Shown: in pieces, positions 46,101-55,100 of the stretch
Layout of the letters: every line of letters starts with the position of its first letter
Numbering within the stretch: the stretch's first letter is position 1
NCBI RefSeq assembly: GCF_963921235.1
Contig: NC_086108.1
Location: forward strand, 32,614,001 to 32,678,000
Length of the DNA: 64,000 nt
Source of the DNA: Mobula hypostoma
Taxonomy: Eukaryota
Reading direction: 5' to 3'
The notes under the pieces: generated by a model
Seen by the model: only the letters and a program-made list of their open reading frames with translations
The model's database searches: none
Told to the model about the DNA's origin: nothing
Made by a program: the position numbers and the translations under genes

Positions 46101-49100
46101 TTCCCCAATTTGCTCTCACTGGAAGGAGACTATTAATATTATACATGAGTCTCTTGCATTAGAAATACAAAAACAATGGTTTAGACTTCACCTGGTCCAA
46201 ACTAGCTTCCTAGACAAGTTTGCATTTGTAAAGATGTAGCCATCACAAGTTTCCTTTTGATGACCATCTCTAAACACACCAATGTCTATCTAGGCTCAAA
46301 GGCTAGTAAGAGTAGAATGTGCCTAATAATCATTTTTCACACTTGTCTCCACTGCTCAGTGACACCCTTGTTTTCCAGCTGAGCCCAATAATGTGTTTGG
46401 GGTTCTCACTGAATTACATTGCAGGATCTTGTGCATATGTGGAGCGTAAAAGGGGAAAAACTCTTGGTGAATCAGGGAATTAGGTCAATGGAAAAGGAAA
46501 GCTATGTTTGCACTTAGAAACAAAAGCATTGTGTTTAGTCAAGAATGTACTGCAGTGCCTCCACTTCTTTTGGAGATTGAGACGAGTGAAGCTTCCCACC
46601 GCCATTGTAATGTTTCAACATCATTGAGAATGTCCTGGCTGGCTGTTTTACTGTCTGGTTTGGGAATTGCTTGGCATCTGACTGCAAGTCCCTGTTACAG
46701 ATTGTGAGGAGAGTCAGAGAGTCATCAGGCTCTCTCTTTCCCCCTCCCCCAGCCCCAGGACATGTAGCAGAAATGCTGCGTTTTCAGTGCCCTCAACATT
46801 GTCTACCGACCCTCTCAACCTCTTCGACCTCTTACCATCAGGCAGAAGGTACTGCAGTATGAGAACAAGGGCTGTTAGGCTGGGTAACAGCTTTTTACCC
46901 CATACTGTGAGGTATCTGAACACCCTGCTCCCACCCAATACACATTATTTATGACAGCACCCGTAGCATTATACTGTTGTATATTTATCTATACTGTGCG
47001 ATCGAGAATCTCCGGAGGGGAAGGCCCCAAATCCTCAGCTTTGCCTATTGCCTGTTGCCGGGGTCCAGGGTTGAAACGCTTGGCAGAGATGGTGCGCGGT
47101 GCTCGGTGTCGGAGGGCTGGTCAGAGGCTCGAAGTTTTCAGACGGAATCAAGAGTCGGCTGTGGTCGGGTGCTTCCAGGGTGCTGCATCGGCAAGTTTGC
47201 GGCGCTGGAGGTTCATGGCAGGAAGAGTTTCTCCCTTCAACCGTCTGCGTAAAATGATGGGACTTTTGAGAGACTTTGAGACTTTTTTTTACCGTGCCCA
47301 TGGTCTGTTCTTCTATCAAATTACGGTATTGCTTAGCACTGTTGTAACTATATGTTATAATTATGTGGTTTTTGTCAGTTTTTATAGTCTTGGTTTGTCT
47401 TGTGTTTCTGTGATATTATTGGAGGAACATTGTATCATTTCTTAACGCATGCATTACTAAATGACAATAAAAGAGGACTGCATGTCCTCATAATCTAATC
47501 TAATCTAATCTAATCTAATATGTCATACATGTACTTTACATCAATTTATACATCCACAGAATATTTTTTAATCTCTTAATATTATTGTGTAAATATCATT
47601 TTATGTGTGTATGTGATATATGCACTGAGTTTTGCACCTTACTACCTGGGAATATTGTTTCGTTTACCTGTATACATGGGCATGGTTGAATGACAATGAA
47701 CTTGAACTTTAACCTTCAGACAGGTGATTAACTGATTCCCTGCTGAGCACCCTGGACTTCTCCCTAGTATCAAGAGTGCTACTGGAATCAGCACTAAAAG
47801 TGGTATCTCCCAATGTTAGTAATAATGATAATAATCCAAAATAGTGGTCCATTCTATTATTCCTGTTTTTGCAGCATTCAATGCTTTATAGCAAGCTGAA
47901 GAATTTAAGATTGTTATCCTCATCTTAGACCCTTCCAGGTCCTTTCTTTGCTTGACTCTGTTATTTTTTTTGAAGGTTAGTTCCTTCAACAAAATCCTTA
48001 CTAGTTTTTTGTTCCAGCATCCAGAAGGGAAAGGGAGTGAGAAAGGCACTAAGTAGACCATGGAGCCAATGGAGGTCAGTTAGAATAGGAGTGTTGGGCA
48101 AATAGAACAAAGTGCAGGATACAGACCCAGACTTATTTTAAGTTCATGGAGTTCTGAAAAGGGGAGTTTACCTCAAGTTCAGTCTGGTGATGGCAGTGAT
48201 GTGGAGGCATAGGTTACTATTTCTATATTAGATGTGTTGAGATATGTCTTATATAAGCAATGTTATAGAGTGTAAGTAAGCTTACGCTAATTTCGAGGAA
48301 ATGATATTGCGAGCTCCCAACAGCACGAAGTTCAATAGTCTGATTCATCATGATATTGGCTGGAATGGTAAAAATGTATGGGCCCAATTAATATTGAATA
48401 GCTAATAGGACATGTTCAGAGGTGAGAGAACATACCAACTTCTATAAAATTATGCTACTATTTTCAGGATTTCAATTCTCAAGCATGTCTTGGAAGGCAA
48501 CAAAGGGAACCTGAATTGGTGAGGTGATAGAACAAGCATGTCATTTCCACTCTGGTTATAGATGGCATCAAACAGAGTCACCGGGTCATAGAGTCACTGA
48601 GGAGCACAACACAGAAACAGGAGCTCACAAGGGGATTATTGTGACTTGCATCTAGCTGAGAAGCAGTACCTGTGGAGGATTCAGTTGTTGCTTTAAACTA
48701 AAAGTGAAGATCTGACTGGAATTTAGTCTGCTGGATCACCACTGCCTGTTGTTTCAGTGACAAAGGCTGATTCCAGACACCACAGGGGCAGCTGTACCCA
48801 GATACATCAATCACTCGACGTAGTGGTGGCTACGTCAGAAATATTGCCAAGTCTGATTACACAATTTGTAATTCGCTGGTGTATACTGAGCTAATGGGAC
48901 AGTATTTTGAACCAAATGAAATAGCGAGTGCCAATTTTGCTGAGCTCATCAGGTCTAAAGGCATACGGTTTGCTTCAGAGTTTGACTGTTCCAAATGACC
49001 ATCAGGAGTGAGCTCTCCTGATATTGTCAAAGTGATGCAGGGACATTTAGAAACAACATGTAAGGGAGTTTCGATTTTTATGTTACTGCGGAGGCTAATT

Positions 49101-52100
49101 AAAATGGCGTCTTTGTTATGTTAATCTGGGGAACACAGCTTTGTTGTGTTAAACACTGGGAAAGTTTGCGCTAACTGTTTTTGCTTTAGAGTCTGCTAAG
49201 AGGGTGCTATTAACCAATTGGGATAGTTGTTATGGTTCTGGTGTATTTGAAGATACTGTATGCGCGGGGTTTTGGGGCAGAAGGCGGGAGAGCGAGACAG
49301 AGGATGGACGAGGTGCTGTGAGTCCACTAACGGGGTCGGACCCCGAGCGGGACGTTCGGCGAGGAGACGGAGACGGACTCGTGTGGAGCGTCTGGTCGAC
49401 CACCGTTGTTGGTCCCAGGCGGCCGGTCGAGGTGGTCCGAGGGGTCGCAGGGTGAAGAAGAAGGTCATTGAGCTCCAACGGTTTTGTGCACGAAAAGATT
49501 GAACTTTGATAAGTGTGGCGCCTTTTTTTTCCCTTTTATATTTTATTCTCTTTTAATTATATAGATCCAGTAATATCTATAAACTGTAAATCATTTAATT
49601 GCATCTGGTGTATTGTCTGTTATTTGGGCGGGATGGGGTACCTCACACAGCATCCACACAAACGAATTATCCAGTTTGGCGGGGCCGAGGCTGTTTCCCT
49701 GGACGACAGCGAGCCGAGCGACCCTGAGGGTGGCCGGGGGAGCTATATTGTGTGGGCTTTGTCCGGGATTGAGTCTGCTGGTATGCTGCGTGGGTACCCT
49801 GTTTAAATCTGTAATGTGTGTCTCTGTGGGTTATTTGCTGGTGATTGCTGTATGCGTGGTGGGTGAGGTCTTTGTTCGAGTTCGGGCTGGCATTGACGAG
49901 TTGGAGGTGGCACTCGGGGCTGTCCATGCGGTTGGGAGAGAGAGGAAAGGGTGGTCTGATTTGGAGGTAGAGTCTGCGAATAAATGTTCTAGCTCTGGCA
50001 GGCTTCGCCTGGCACTTGGGATAGTGTCCACCCCAAGAGGGGCGGAGGCGTGCGAGACGTGGGCGGAGCGGATCACTCAGTTGTTAGATGAGTGGCAGTG
50101 CTCGGTTGAGGGAGAGCGACAGGAATTGGTTGAAAGTTTGAGTAGGCAGGCTGGTGACGGTGTTAGAGCTGTCAGGTTCACTTACACCGTAGTGACAGCT
50201 GTCAGTTATTTGAAAGTGGGGGGGGGGAGTTTTCAGTGTGTCTTCTCTGGCGAGGAGGGCGGCTAAATTGCTTGCAGTGCCAGGGGGATCAGTTGTTCAG
50301 CTGATCAGAGAGGTGTCGGGAAATTTAGTGGAGGCCCAGTGGGGGAAAGGCTTGGGGTCTCTGGGGAAGCACGTTCCCAGCAATGTACCACTGAACTTCC
50401 GCAAGGAAAAGACCCTATTCCTGAAGGCTTAGAGGGACCACGCCCCAGAGTGTCGTTATGAATAGAGGGAAGCGATGCTAAAGCTATCCTCGACCCCGGG
50501 GCGCAGATCAAGTTGTTGTACAGTTCGTTTTACAACCGGTGTCTCTGAAGCATTTATCCTTGACAACCGCAAGGGCACCAGAGACTTTGGGTACCAGTGG
50601 CAGTAGTTATCCAGAAGACGATGATTGGTTAATGACCCTGGAGTTCATGGAGGCATTGTCTGGGCACCCAGCGTGTCGAGTTGCTTCTGAGCACGTGTGT
50701 AGCAGCCTTGAGACGGTACCGAATTTAAGCGAGACCCAGCGGTGGTACGGCCTGGGGAAAGTAGCTGAGGGTGAGACCCTCTTAGTAGATGCTCCGAACC
50801 ACCACGAGGGAGGGGAGTTGACCGCTGAAGACACCTCAGTGAGAGAGAGAGGTCGCGGCAACTGGACCCTGGCGGCGTGGAAGATGAAGGCAGCGTGTGT
50901 GCGGATGATGCGATGTGGTTTAATGCGCTGCATCTGAGGGGTGGATGTTGCCAGATCCTGAGGAGTGCGGCTGTTGAGCTGAAGATGGCCTTTACTAGTT
51001 CCCCAGGATTCTTCCGATCCGAAAAGATGCCCAAGGGCATATCCGGAGCCCCTGCATCCTTCCCGCGGGGCATGAGGAAGACCATGGGGGAAGTGAAGGA
51101 GTGTGGAGTTTTGACGTACGTGGATGACCGCCTAGAGCTTGGATTCGCCTGGGGGGACTATGAGGCGAGGCAAGTGGCTGAGCCCGGGCGACCGAAGCGA
51201 AGTGTCAAATGTGGAGGAGTTTTTGGCCGGAGGTGTTTGGTGCAATGTGAGGAAAATGACCCGACATACCAGTTGAACTTCCTGGTGTTGGGACAGACGG
51301 TGGTGGACTAGGGCATGGAAACCCAGGTCGTCAATCTGAATGAGACACAGGGAAGAGAGGGGGTTTGCACCGCACTGCGGTCGTATACTGACGAATTAAT
51401 CCAGCGAGAAGAAACAATGACCCGCCTTCGAAGGGATCAGCAGAAACTCAAGACGTCGATTCAGAACAGATTGGAAGACTTGCAAGTTGGAGAAGATCAT
51501 GGAAGTGTTCTGACTAAGGTCAACAGAAAACCGAGAGCACAGGGAGGGGAGTTTGACTACACTCCCGAGGAGGTAAAGAAATGGAGGACAGATCTCGGAA
51601 AGGGGAGGCGGACGCTTGAAAGGAACCTGAAGATGACTATCGCGAGTTTAAATGAAGTGGAAAAACTGAACGTTGACCTGGAGGACGCCCTCAGGAAGAA
51701 ACAACCGGAGGCTGAACATTCTTTAACTGCTGCTTTTCAGGTCAGGGTGGAAGAAGCTGGTGGGGTAACTGCGTCCCAGATTGAGATGGCCAGGAACCCT
51801 GAGTCAGAACTGCGGAGGCTGTGGCGAGAGTTGAAGGAGTCCCCGAAGAAGCTGACGTCTCGACTGCAGGAGGCTGAAGGGGTAGCCCCGGCTAACTGGT
51901 TCAGTTTGGAGGAACTTAAACAGCAGCTATCGATCGAGGGAATGAGGAAGGATACGGGTTCGAAGGATGATGTGCTGCACATGTGGAACATGCTGCCTTT
52001 CGCTAACTTCCCCGTGATTGAGGAAGAGACCTTTGGCCCTTCTCCCACTTAGTCAGGTGTAGTGGGGAGGGCTAGCTGTGGGCAGTCTGAGTTGCGGCAG

Positions 52101-55100
52101 GATTGGGAAGGAGGAGGGGCGGGGCCCTGGACACGGGACTGGGGGCTCCGAGCTGTAGTGGTGGCCTGAGTGAGAGAGGAGTTGGCAATCAGGCCCGAGG
52201 TATCCCTAGTAGTGTCTGAGCCTTTTGGGTTTAGGCGAGGGATTACGGAGGTCTCAGAGGGTTAAGAAGCTCCCAGATAGGTTGGCCTATGGAGCGCCCG
52301 TGGGACGGGAGTAAGGTCCACTGTTTGGGGAGCACTGTCACTGTGTGTATCTGTGTATGTGTGTGTTGTGTGTCTGTAGGACTGGGTGGCGACTTATTTA
52401 TAAGTCATGAGGACATGACTTTATTTGGTGGGGGGAGAGTGTCAGGGGGTTTCGATTTTTATGTTACTGCGGCAGCTAATTAAAATGGCGTCTTTGTTAT
52501 GTTAATCTGGGGAATGCGGCTTTGTTGTGTTAAACACTGAGAAAGTTTGCGCTAACAGTTTGTTTTTGCTTTACAGTCTAATAAGAGGGTGCTATTAACC
52601 AATTGGGATAGTTGTTATGGTTCTGGTGTATTTGAAGATACTGTATGCGCGGGGTTTTGGGGCAGAAGGCGGGAGAGCGAGACAGAGGATGGACGAGGTG
52701 CTGTGAGTCCGCTAACGGGGTCGGACCCCGAGCGGGACGTTCGGCGAGGAGACGGAGACGGACTCGTGTGGAGCGTCTGGTCGACCACCGTTGTTGGTCC
52801 CAGGCGGCCGGTCGAGGTGGTCCGAGGGTCGCAGGGTGAAGAAGAAGGTCCTTGAGCTCCAACGGTTTTGTGCACGAAAAGATTGAACTTTGATAAGTGT
52901 GGCGCCTTTTTTTCCCCTTTTATATTTTATTCTCTTTTAATTATATAGTTCCAGTAATATCTATAAATTGTAAATCATTTAATTGCATCTGGTGTATTGT
53001 CTGTTATTTGGGCGGGGTGGGGTACCTCACACAGCATCCACACAAACGAATTATCCAGTTTCGCGGGGCCGAGGCTGTTTCCCTAGACGACAGCGAGCCG
53101 AGCGACCCTGAGGGTGGCCAGGGGGGCTACAAACACAACACAAAATGCTGGAGGAACTCAGCAGGCCAGGCAGCATCATGGAAAAGAGTAAACAGTCGAT
53201 GTTTTGGGCTGAGACACTTCATCAGGACTGGATGAAGTGTATCAGCCTGAAACATCAACTGTTTACTCTTTTCCATAGACGCTGTCTGGCCTGGTGAGTT
53301 CCCCCGACATTTTGCATCTGATCCTTAGATTTCCAGCATCTGTTGATTTTCTTAGTTTTGACATTTAGAACCAAAGCCATTGTTGATTGTAGAACATTTT
53401 AGGTTTCATAAGTGGAATCAAAAAGAAAGGGAGTCCATTTCAGTGCATGTGGCTGAATTGCAAAGACTGCCTGAGCATTGTCAGTTCAGTCATGGGCTTA
53501 ATGATAGCTTGTGGAATCTTAAAAGAAAGCATTCGAAAACAGCTCCTAACTGAAACACAGCTTACATTGAAATGAGCAGTGGAAATTGCTGTTTCAATGG
53601 ACACTGCAGACAGAGACACAGTCAGGAACAAAAGTGAACATGAATAGAATTGCAGCATTGTAACGTAGAATCAGGTTCGCGGGTCTGGTGAGTGAAACAG
53701 AAAACACTGACTTCGAATAAATATATTAATCATTTATTTACAAACAGTTAAAATTCGACCAAACATTCACATTCCCCAAGTTACAGAAACTATAAAGCTG
53801 AATATTCAACAAATATACATTCAACAAACATACTTAGCTAAAAGCGTGCGCAAAGCATATCTTCCCAATGGTCATGTGCACCACTTGCCTTAAACAAAGG
53901 AAGAGACAAAGAACCTCCCACACGTTCTCTCTATACATCCAGTATATTGGGAATGGGACACCAACCGGCTAACCAATGGGAAAAGCAGCTGCAGTTTCTA
54001 AACTAACCAATCCTGACAAAGTGCCTTTTGAAAATCAGAATAAACTATGCCCTCCGCCTCACCCCCTCATAGGACAAGCGACTCAACAGAAATCAGCCTG
54101 GCCAAACAAATTGTGTCGCCGTTGTGGCATGGGCTCCCATAAACCAAAGAAATGTAGGTTTAAAGACAAAACATAGAAAATACAACAAAGTAGGACAAAT
54201 ACAAAGAGTTTGTTGGGCAGACAACAATAAAAGGAATGTCCAGGGAAGAGAAAAATCTAAGAAGTCAAGTTGCAGTTTCAAAAAGAGCACTAATCTGTGT
54301 GCTGTTGACAAAAAAAAATCTGATAATGATGAAAGTGACTCAGGATTGTGCAGTCTTAAGATTTACAATGTGAAAATTAATAATAGAAAGCAATATGGCT
54401 TATACCAGAAGAGAAGGACAAATTAATTAAAATGAAATTAGATACTGGCTCAGCTGTTTCAGTCATTCCACAAAATGAGTTTGAGCGACATTTCAAAGAT
54501 ACCAAACTGAAGCCTGCAGATATCCAATTAAGAACTTATACTGAAGAAAAAAATAACTCCCATGGGAATGACATTTGTAACTGTGAAATACAAGGACCAT
54601 AGTTAGAGCCATGAATGGCTGAGACAACTACAACTTGATTGGAGACCCATCCACTATTTGCATGTCACATCCTCCGCAATGAAGCCATCTGAAAGCAAAT
54701 TAAGGAAGGTACCGGATGATGCCACAGCTCTCTCCATGCTGTACACTATGAACACTCGTCCAAAAGAGGACAAATAGGCATTGGTGCCAACCTGTGTGTG
54801 CCTCTAGTTGGAAAGCATATTGGATCAGAGAAGGACCACGCTGCTCAGAGGAACTGTGAAAGTGATGAAGGCACAGGTCCGACAACACAGTTTTTCTACG
54901 CGACATATCCGAGAAAGCTTCTGATATGTTAATCAGACAGATACTTGTGAAATGTGGCTTAGTGTTACGCTGGAAGGGAGTTCAAAGAGCTTCAGAAAAG
55001 TTGCAAGCATTCAGCTTTTGTGTGTATCAAGATCTAGAATCTACTCTGCATGCATTAAGGATATTGCACGAACTTCAAGTGGGAGACAAAAAACTGCTTG

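Follow-up and report, generated by a model that had tools for sequence, protein, structure and literature searches.

Here, we describe a retroelement with long terminal repeats (LTRs) that appears to have captured part of a muscle gene of its host, the ray Mobula hypostoma. The window, that is, the whole stretch of DNA analysed, comprises 64,000 nucleotides (NCBI RefSeq assembly GCF_963921235.1, contig NC_086108.1, positions 32,614,001 to 32,678,000 of the forward strand); coordinates given without a contig label are positions within it. The element is 4,073 bp long (49059-53131). It encloses a frame of 245 amino acids that begins at an ATG, occupies 51315-52052 of the plus strand (from 51312 if the ATG is disregarded), and is open throughout. 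Judged by its protein matches, the cargo encoded by this open reading frame (ORF) is a fragment of a sarcomeric myosin heavy-chain rod. The cargo and the ends of its carrier are as follows.

51315-51940, plus strand: intronless myosin rod cargo, apparently MYH16-type; rod residues ~920-1105, 1150-1190, and 1385-1430 (fast-MYH numbering)
49055-49058, plus strand: candidate 4-bp target-site duplication, left copy; the right copy is 53132-53135, and the same bases lie outside both LTRs
49059-49747, plus strand: 5' LTR; starts with TG, and its last two bases differ from the CA of the 3' LTR; LTR identity 96.2%
49752-49769, plus strand: candidate primer-binding site with a TGG start, seen in the sequence
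52427-52439, plus strand: polypurine tract, a purine run directly before the 3' LTR
52440-53131, plus strand: 3' LTR, TG...CA, placed by LTR alignment and by the ends of other copies

The LTR pair aligns over 691 columns with 21 mismatches and 2 gap openings. The 3' LTR boundary was set by comparison with other copies: an end is identifiable in 24 of 30 related copies, those in which a 12-base anchor could be found, and most of these end in CA, after which the flanks diverge. Almost all of the 16 copies displayed retain the purine-rich tract adjoining the 3' LTR. The 4-base match flanking the element is weak evidence when taken alone. The candidate primer-binding site, a 17- to 18-mer, begins four bases past the 5' LTR, and presumably resembles a tRNA-Pro site. 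Upstream of the 245-residue frame, and in the same frame, lies a stop-to-stop frame (50829-51311), with a lone TAG (51309-51311) between the two. The initial annotation of this DNA, made from the letters alone, had described paired LTRs, an element of about 4.07 kb, a polypurine tract, and an open frame in phase with a reverse transcriptase (RT) remnant across a single TAG; the LTR alignment, the ends of the 24 copies, the persistence of the tract, and the frames themselves reproduce all of these.

The myosin identity of the cargo is established by several comparisons. A phmmer search of the ORF against all PDB chains returns 12 sequences up to E 10, 11 of which are myosin heavy chains (E 1.5e-7 to 1.9e-4); the twelfth is at chance level (E 0.57). 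The matches are collinear. Specifically, ORF residues 20-134 align with MYH4 977-1091, residues 101-179, which hold the EEAGG..QIEM motif, align with MYH4 1107-1187, and residues ~170-207 align with MYH4 ~1390-1426. When a profile is built from ten family proteins, all 12 of its PDB matches are myosin chains (best E 7.3e-15), one of them a construct that contains only residues 1361-1425 of MYH7. A second family profile, run against long proteins, yields 120 matches: one, a Hypanus gene model, includes the element itself, and the other 119 all possess myosin motor and tail domains, with most named as myosin heavy chains. Five longer family members (P0002, P0003, P0006, P0007, and P0194) carry additional rod segments, again in the correct order. 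The claim that sarcomeric myosin motifs occur here in the right order is therefore upheld by the collinear MYH stretches, the matches being to myosin heavy chains rather than to generic coiled coils. The Pfam models Myosin_tail_1 and Myosin_head do not match the ORF or ten family members; it is the PDB, profile, and tree results that carry the identification. Of roughly 1,080 rod residues, about 210-250 are left in the cargo, which has neither the motor domain nor the full-length rod of a functional myosin heavy chain. Deletions in the rod have lengths other than multiples of 7 or 28 residues.

The carrier can be placed through its own relatives. When the gag-to-RT portion of a related copy is searched exhaustively against proteins, autonomous elements (P0133, P0139, P0140, P0142, and P0280) are recovered that jointly carry PNMA_N, PNMA, zinc knuckle, RVT_1, RT_RNaseH_2, Integrase_H2C2, and rve domains. 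By this kinship, the carrier is a non-autonomous Ty3/gypsy (Metaviridae) derivative with a PNMA-type gag. The window is collinear with the closest full Pol, P0280, in which RT, ribonuclease H (RNase H), and integrase follow in that order and whose first residues align to the protease remnant.

49770-50432, plus strand: gag remnant, PNMA type, broken here; Pfam PNMA E 1.3e-6, 28.4 bits against a cut-off of 25, in the frame 49583-50263
50345-50664, plus strand: protease remnant; tblastn match to P0280 residues 3-108, 42-54% identity, E 9e-17
50829-51170, plus strand: RT palm remnant; P0280 413-525, 41% identity, E 8e-19; RVT_1 E 0.0084, below the cut-off
51222-51308, plus strand: RNase H fragment, in frame with the cargo; P0280 702-730, 48% identity; the motif lies upstream of myosin in an older copy
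51945-52085, plus strand: Pol C-terminal remnant, from downstream of integrase, in frame with the cargo; P0280 1327-1374, 37.5% identity
52246-52441, plus strand: end of the parental Pol, in a different frame, entering the polypurine tract; P0280 1457-1500 and 1505-1522, E 7e-6

The gag remnant has a counterpart in 6 of 30 other copies, which possess a 207-residue gag frame that ends at the position of 50432. The RT remnant retains YVDD; an internal deletion affects its finger region, and another residue stands in place of the first catalytic Asp. The myosin piece (51315 to ~51940) sits between the positions of P0280 residues 730 and 1327, and the frame is equal on both sides. In an older copy, composed of L081 and L079, the RNase H end and the pre-integrase linker come before the myosin part; therefore, the myosin complementary DNA (cDNA) replaced integrase. 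On the P0280 map, the cargo in the window takes the place of integrase in full and of RNase H for the most part, and it keeps the frame at either junction. This map and the older copy agree with the initial annotation, which had placed a coiled coil where RNase H and integrase should be. Two other assignments around the cargo were rejected: the stretch before it is not an RT thumb motif, as P0280 and the older copy show an RNase H fragment there, and the tail of the ORF as a myosin C-terminus with 3' untranslated region is unsupported, as that tail aligns to the Pol C-terminal region. Just upstream of the protease remnant, position 50459-50461 is a stop in some copies and a sense codon in others, a difference that may represent subfamily variation at the gag-pol boundary.

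The cargo carries no introns and corresponds to spliced mRNA of the host. We mapped exons in a host fast-MYH gene (C68:15,380,000-15,399,999) using the stingray myosin P0018. Introns of that gene fall after ...ATENK, ...QQVDD, ...EKLKK, and ...IKELQ, and the part of the rod matched by the cargo spans at least five of its exons. The long family members and two older copies continue uninterrupted over at least four exon junctions. Thus, the proposal that a rod was captured without introns, and with large internal deletions, is supported jointly by the exon map and the alignments, and the suggested check against the host gene has the cargo family crossing exon junctions.

Which myosin was captured is addressed by phylogeny. 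A maximum-likelihood tree unites all 12 cargo rows in a single clade (100/100). Its sister group consists of two teleost proteins labelled myosin-16-like by NCBI, with support of 100/99 when 10 cargo rows are included and 100/100 when 12 are. The approximately unbiased test rejects a tree that separates the cargo from the MYH16-like proteins (p 0.002), for a group that was chosen after the tree had been seen. The older intronless copies L079 and L080 of the M. hypostoma genome are 79% identical to the cargo in DNA; at the protein level, their identity is 45-47% with MYH16-like sequences and 41% with ray fast MYH. They also have in common with MYH16-like sequences the LKMTI..LNE stretch, which the initial annotation had likened to MYH16. 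The likeness holds both in the tree and in this stretch, and the source of the cargo would accordingly be an MYH16-type sarcomeric myosin heavy chain.

Several myosin loci of the host bear on the search for a parent. The teleost MYH16-like rod finds its best match (65-66% identity) in a multi-exon gene at C36:112719854-112723116, over a part of that rod that the element lacks; this gene is a candidate for the host MYH16 and a candidate parent of the cargo. Loci on C45, at C36:126 Mb, and at C68:25 Mb were considered first and set aside, as they match the cargo weakly and are ~40-48% identical to sarcomeric rod queries. The fast-MYH cluster at C68:15.3-15.9 Mb took their place for the exon map. 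That cluster (C68:15.30-15.90 Mb) is a tandem array of at least eight fast-type myosin heavy-chain genes, mostly spaced ~75 kb apart and at most ~110 kb. The genome also holds intronless myosin-tail stretches with stops, namely L031 (C18:48745523-48746731), L032 (C50:30689110-30689772), and L033 and L034 on C184 and C157. Stretches of this type score up to 432 bits on PF01576 and are ~30% identical to sarcomeric myosins. They and others were considered as relatives of the element and dismissed as unrelated, having neither a DNA match to it nor Pol flanks; L031-L034 are probably processed pseudogenes of another myosin class.

The window copy belongs to a large family. Three different queries give 1,441, 1,220, and 1,325 candidate places in the 3.48-Gb genome, and the 40 best places by cargo DNA are 96-100% identical over the full cargo length. 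A 40-base word over the RNase H/myosin junction occurs 144 times at three or fewer mismatches, versus 0 times for a reversed control. The count is a floor, as the common form of the junction already differs from the window at three positions; with 0 mismatches, the word is found in the window only. Of four internal junctions tested, three are common to 30 of 30 copies and the fourth to 29 of 30. Between 51300 and 52440, there is no A-run longer than 5, and neither a poly(A) tract nor a hallmark of long interspersed nuclear elements (LINEs) is present at the cargo. The element of the window has an LTR pair, a polypurine tract, and a candidate target duplication, lacks the enzymes, and occurs in many copies of like internal structure, all features of non-autonomous LTR elements. 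The earlier suggestion that the cargo is propagated by a non-autonomous LTR family, rather than being a lone LINE insertion, thus finds support in the 1,441 places, the shared junctions, and A-runs of no more than 5; the genome-wide count of identical junctions that it had proposed is the one given above.

Protein relatives of the family are limited to Mobula birostris, M. hypostoma, Hypanus sabinus, and Hemitrygon akajei. A Hypanus row is nested among Mobula rows in the tree; therefore, unless the family passed from one of these rays to another, its diversification predates their split. Within the family, a "short" subfamily is distinguished by one deletion.

51372-51373, plus strand: deletion junction, 120 nt lost in frame, diagnostic of the "short" subfamily; from alignment with the "long" copies L076-L078

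The stretch that was lost is not bounded by GT..AG, and microhomology amounts to ~1 nt. Its origin as a spliced cryptic intron or a skipped exon was considered and rejected, as GT..AG is lacking and the right edge alone lies at a host exon junction. In a separate case, L072 (C71:26026345-26027244), the cargo is interrupted by a retroelement with a frame resembling a LINE-type RT.

Comparison across copies also reveals what the 245-residue frame is. Thirty comparison copies, picked by cargo similarity, were aligned to the two stops that bound it.

51309-51311, plus strand: copy-private stop that cuts the family ORF2; a stop here in 0 of 30 other copies
52050-52052, plus strand: second copy-private stop, which ends the 245-residue frame; 0 of 30 other copies, whose frames continue to the position of 52167-52169

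The frame is a fragment of ORF2 excised by two stops private to the window copy. In 6 of the 30 copies, frames of 458-725 amino acids extend from the protease/RT remnants (from gag in one case) across the cargo, and open frames around cargo matches elsewhere reach 836 amino acids. The RT-remnant frame of the window is open in 1 of 30, the window copy alone, because of its own insertions and deletions. As a control for bias, 39 copies besides the window were picked by the RT remnant, and the cargo DNA of 33 of these was examined. The cargo is unbroken in 11 of the 33; another 3 are truncated or interrupted and were excluded from the rate counts. The cargo of RT-picked copies has suffered 1.04 nonsense and 0.36 frameshift events per kb, versus 0.83 and 0.79 for the RT remnant of cargo-picked copies. 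This is ordinary post-insertion decay from a source with open frames. The initial annotation had held that the cargo stayed open while gag-pol decayed. That claim fails: the stops that delimit the frame are present in 0 of 30 other copies, and breaks in the cargo are about as frequent as in the RT remnant.

Selection on the encoded protein was assessed through pairwise Nei-Gojobori ratios of nonsynonymous to synonymous differences (pN/pS). The pairs are not independent, which makes the intervals too narrow; the rates of the neutral simulation were taken from gag and RT.

Cargo, 47 young copies: in frame 0.49 (bootstrap 0.36-0.64); other frames 0.86, 0.75
RT remnant: in frame 0.68; other frames 0.68, 0.67
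gag: in frame 0.73; other frames 0.65, 0.74
Cargo, neutral simulation: in frame 0.66; other frames 0.71, 0.70
Cargo, two old versus three young copies (21% nucleotide divergence, 516 gap-free nt): in frame 0.69; other frames 0.74, 0.68

At depth, the cargo carries no signal of constraint and is neutral. In contrast to a domesticated host gene, with purifying selection and one stable locus, it lies dispersed over more than 1,000 candidate copies, and its pN/pS, neutral at depth, is borderline in the young ones. The amino acids of the myosin part are without clear constraint; therefore, the cargo is best read as a passenger that became fixed in active lineages.

We consider it highly probable that an MYH16-type rod mRNA was captured into a PNMA-gag Ty3/gypsy element, was amplified non-autonomously, and is now a neutrally decaying passenger. 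The notion is that, in an ancestor of present stingrays and mantas, a spliced MYH16-type mRNA, represented by its rod from about residue 880 on, would have entered the element and replaced the integrase-coding part of pol, with both junctions in frame. Two template switches of reverse transcriptase between RNAs co-packaged in a virus-like particle could accomplish this, and the structure of the element makes template switching the most likely capture route. The chimera would have retained its LTRs, primer-binding site, polypurine tract, and gag; therefore, helper elements could have copied it in trans. Its lineages then shed further internal parts, namely the RT thumb, the bulk of RNase H, and several segments of the rod, and multiplied to more than 1,000 copies. 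Once inserted, copies decay neutrally, and the window copy, with LTRs ~3% diverged, is one of them.

A number of points weigh against this account. Template switching is deduced from the structure. The relatives recovered are distant, autonomous, and from other sources, and no LTR-matched helper was identified, none having been searched for. The MYH16 label depends on two automatically named teleost proteins, and both of the branches joined in the tree are long. That both junctions should be in frame is a 1-in-9 outcome by chance. Among young copies, the pN/pS of the cargo is 0.49 against 0.66 in the simulation, a gap seen neither in the RT remnant nor in gag, which hints, at a borderline level, at some constraint on the cargo. 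Finally, active lineages held a long frame open even as the cargo drifted to its present ~30-47% identity with myosins, which suggests selection against stops without constraint on sequence.

Other histories for the myosin-like region have to be weighed. The coiled coil could belong to the retroelement itself, with its likeness to myosin a matter of composition. The silence of Pfam Myosin_tail_1 would fit such a case, as would off-register coiled-coil alignments, which reach E 1e-12 when composition correction is switched off. With HMMER's own correction, however, the only matches are myosin heavy chains; moreover, the in-register alignment of cargo and myosin reaches E 6e-26, the identity of the older copies to MYH16-like proteins extends across 228-244 amino acids, and integrase occupies the same place in the autonomous relatives. 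We give a native coiled coil almost no credence. It is very improbable, too, that a LINE made a processed myosin pseudogene that landed in one LTR copy: beyond the absent introns, nothing speaks for it, and it is contradicted by the lack of A-runs longer than 5 across 51300-52440, by Pol sequence that is replaced rather than interrupted, and by junctions common to more than 1,000 candidate copies. An LTR element could also have recombined with, or been repaired across, an existing processed myosin pseudogene at the DNA level, with no template switch. The end product would look identical, and intronless myosin-tail copies of other origin do exist in the genome. Against this, the cargo takes the place of a collinear pol segment and preserves the frame at each end, as in the template-switch chimeras described in PMC5131818; in addition, a shallow search revealed no stand-alone MYH16-type pseudogene without pol flanks. 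We regard such a DNA-level origin as quite improbable.

A different question is whether the cargo is a passenger at all. The myosin part could be kept because the element needs it, for multimerisation or for entry into helper particles; in a variant of this idea, an open frame alone is needed, whatever its content, for example to shield the RNA from nonsense-mediated decay. Lineages presumed active are indeed open, with an ORF2 of 458-725 amino acids in the 6 of 30 copies and up to 836 around the cargo; open-frame lineages persist in both Mobula and Hypanus; the cargo is in frame at both junctions; and young copies show the lowered pN/pS of 0.49 (0.36-0.64). By a rough estimate with assumed rates, several nonsense changes would be expected since capture. 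Conversely, the deep pN/pS is neutral (0.69 in frame versus 0.74 and 0.68), many differing internal deletions of the rod have all been propagated, inserted copies lose the cargo as fast as the RT remnant, and the annotated proteins are pre-selected for open frames. On balance, we judge a need for the coiled coil unlikely, and slightly less likely the fuller version in which active lineages would require a translated ORF2 whose myosin coiled coil, in place of integrase, aids multimerisation or particle entry and thereby the copying of its own RNA. Capture followed by neutral passage remains the reading that we favour.

Replication-defective transducing retroviruses carry host cDNA in place of viral coding sequence, produce gag-host fusions, and depend on helpers. 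Analogous to them, the ray element has host cDNA that replaces element coding sequence and is fused to upstream frames. Unlike them, it is a Ty3/gypsy element without env, is fixed and amplified in the germline, carries a fragment of a structural protein, and gives no sign of a cellular effect. Vertebrate Ty3/gypsy elements with PNMA gag resemble it in their collinear gag, protease, RT, RNase H fragment, and Pol tail and in their TG...CA termini; in the ray family, by contrast, a myosin rod fragment is found where integrase, the bulk of RNase H, and a portion of RT have been lost.

The closest parallel is provided by the LTR-mediated retrocopies of animals (Tan et al. 2016, Genome Res 26:1663, PMC5131818), a paper that also cites the capture mechanism of transducing retroviruses. 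In the cases described there, an intronless piece of mRNA replaces part of the internal frames, the flanks are discontinuous parts of the element, the insertion is often in frame, and the chimera is recopied as a non-autonomous element; microsimilarity at the switch points is the key mark of the class. The ray cargo is likewise intronless, replaces part of pol between discontinuous flanks, and lacks poly(A). The likeness is drawn from the structure, as the parental sequences are too diverged to compare at the switch points. The cases of that paper are young and present in one or a few copies; in contrast, the ray family comprises more than 1,000 candidate copies in several deletion lineages and four species, with a cargo that has drifted to ~30-47% identity with myosins. 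Maize Bs1, as presented there, combines three plant genes and exists in one to five copies (PMC5131818). It shares with the ray family transduced fragments of host genes, a hybrid reading frame, and switch points common to copies; the ray family differs in its thousandfold amplification and in carrying a fragment of a single animal gene. The ray family is a member of the LTR-mediated retrocopy class that differs in scale and age, not in kind. We found no description of a myosin-carrying LTR family of rays in the literature covered, which excludes subscription journals.

These findings indicate that a captured host fragment can persist and multiply more than 1,000-fold in a vertebrate lineage, where the animal examples described in PMC5131818 have one or a few copies. 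The family also provides a natural experiment on how a coiled coil drifts once it is released from function. If it is true that the open frame is required, this would be a rare instance of a host domain serving a non-autonomous element; if the coiled coil aids its own copying, a host structural domain would have been co-opted by a parasitic retroelement for its spread. There is a practical consequence as well. Members in ray databases are named "MYH16", "myosin heavy chain, cardiac/skeletal/striated muscle-like", "SDHAF3 isoform X1", and "TMEM192 isoform X1", and masking the family would clear such annotation errors from ray genomes.

Two of these names belong to gene models of Hypanus sabinus, P0009 ("SDHAF3 isoform X1") and P0289 ("TMEM192 isoform X1"), that contain cargo sequence; in P0009, cargo and Pol-tail sequence is fused to the N-terminal LYR domain of the host protein. 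These models are either erroneous or a product of element copies being spliced into host transcripts. Finally, directly 3' of the element in the window (53140-53300) lies a repeat with a long inverted repeat of ~26 bases (53180-53205 versus 53250-53275), which resembles a small foldback or SINE-like (short interspersed nuclear element) element.

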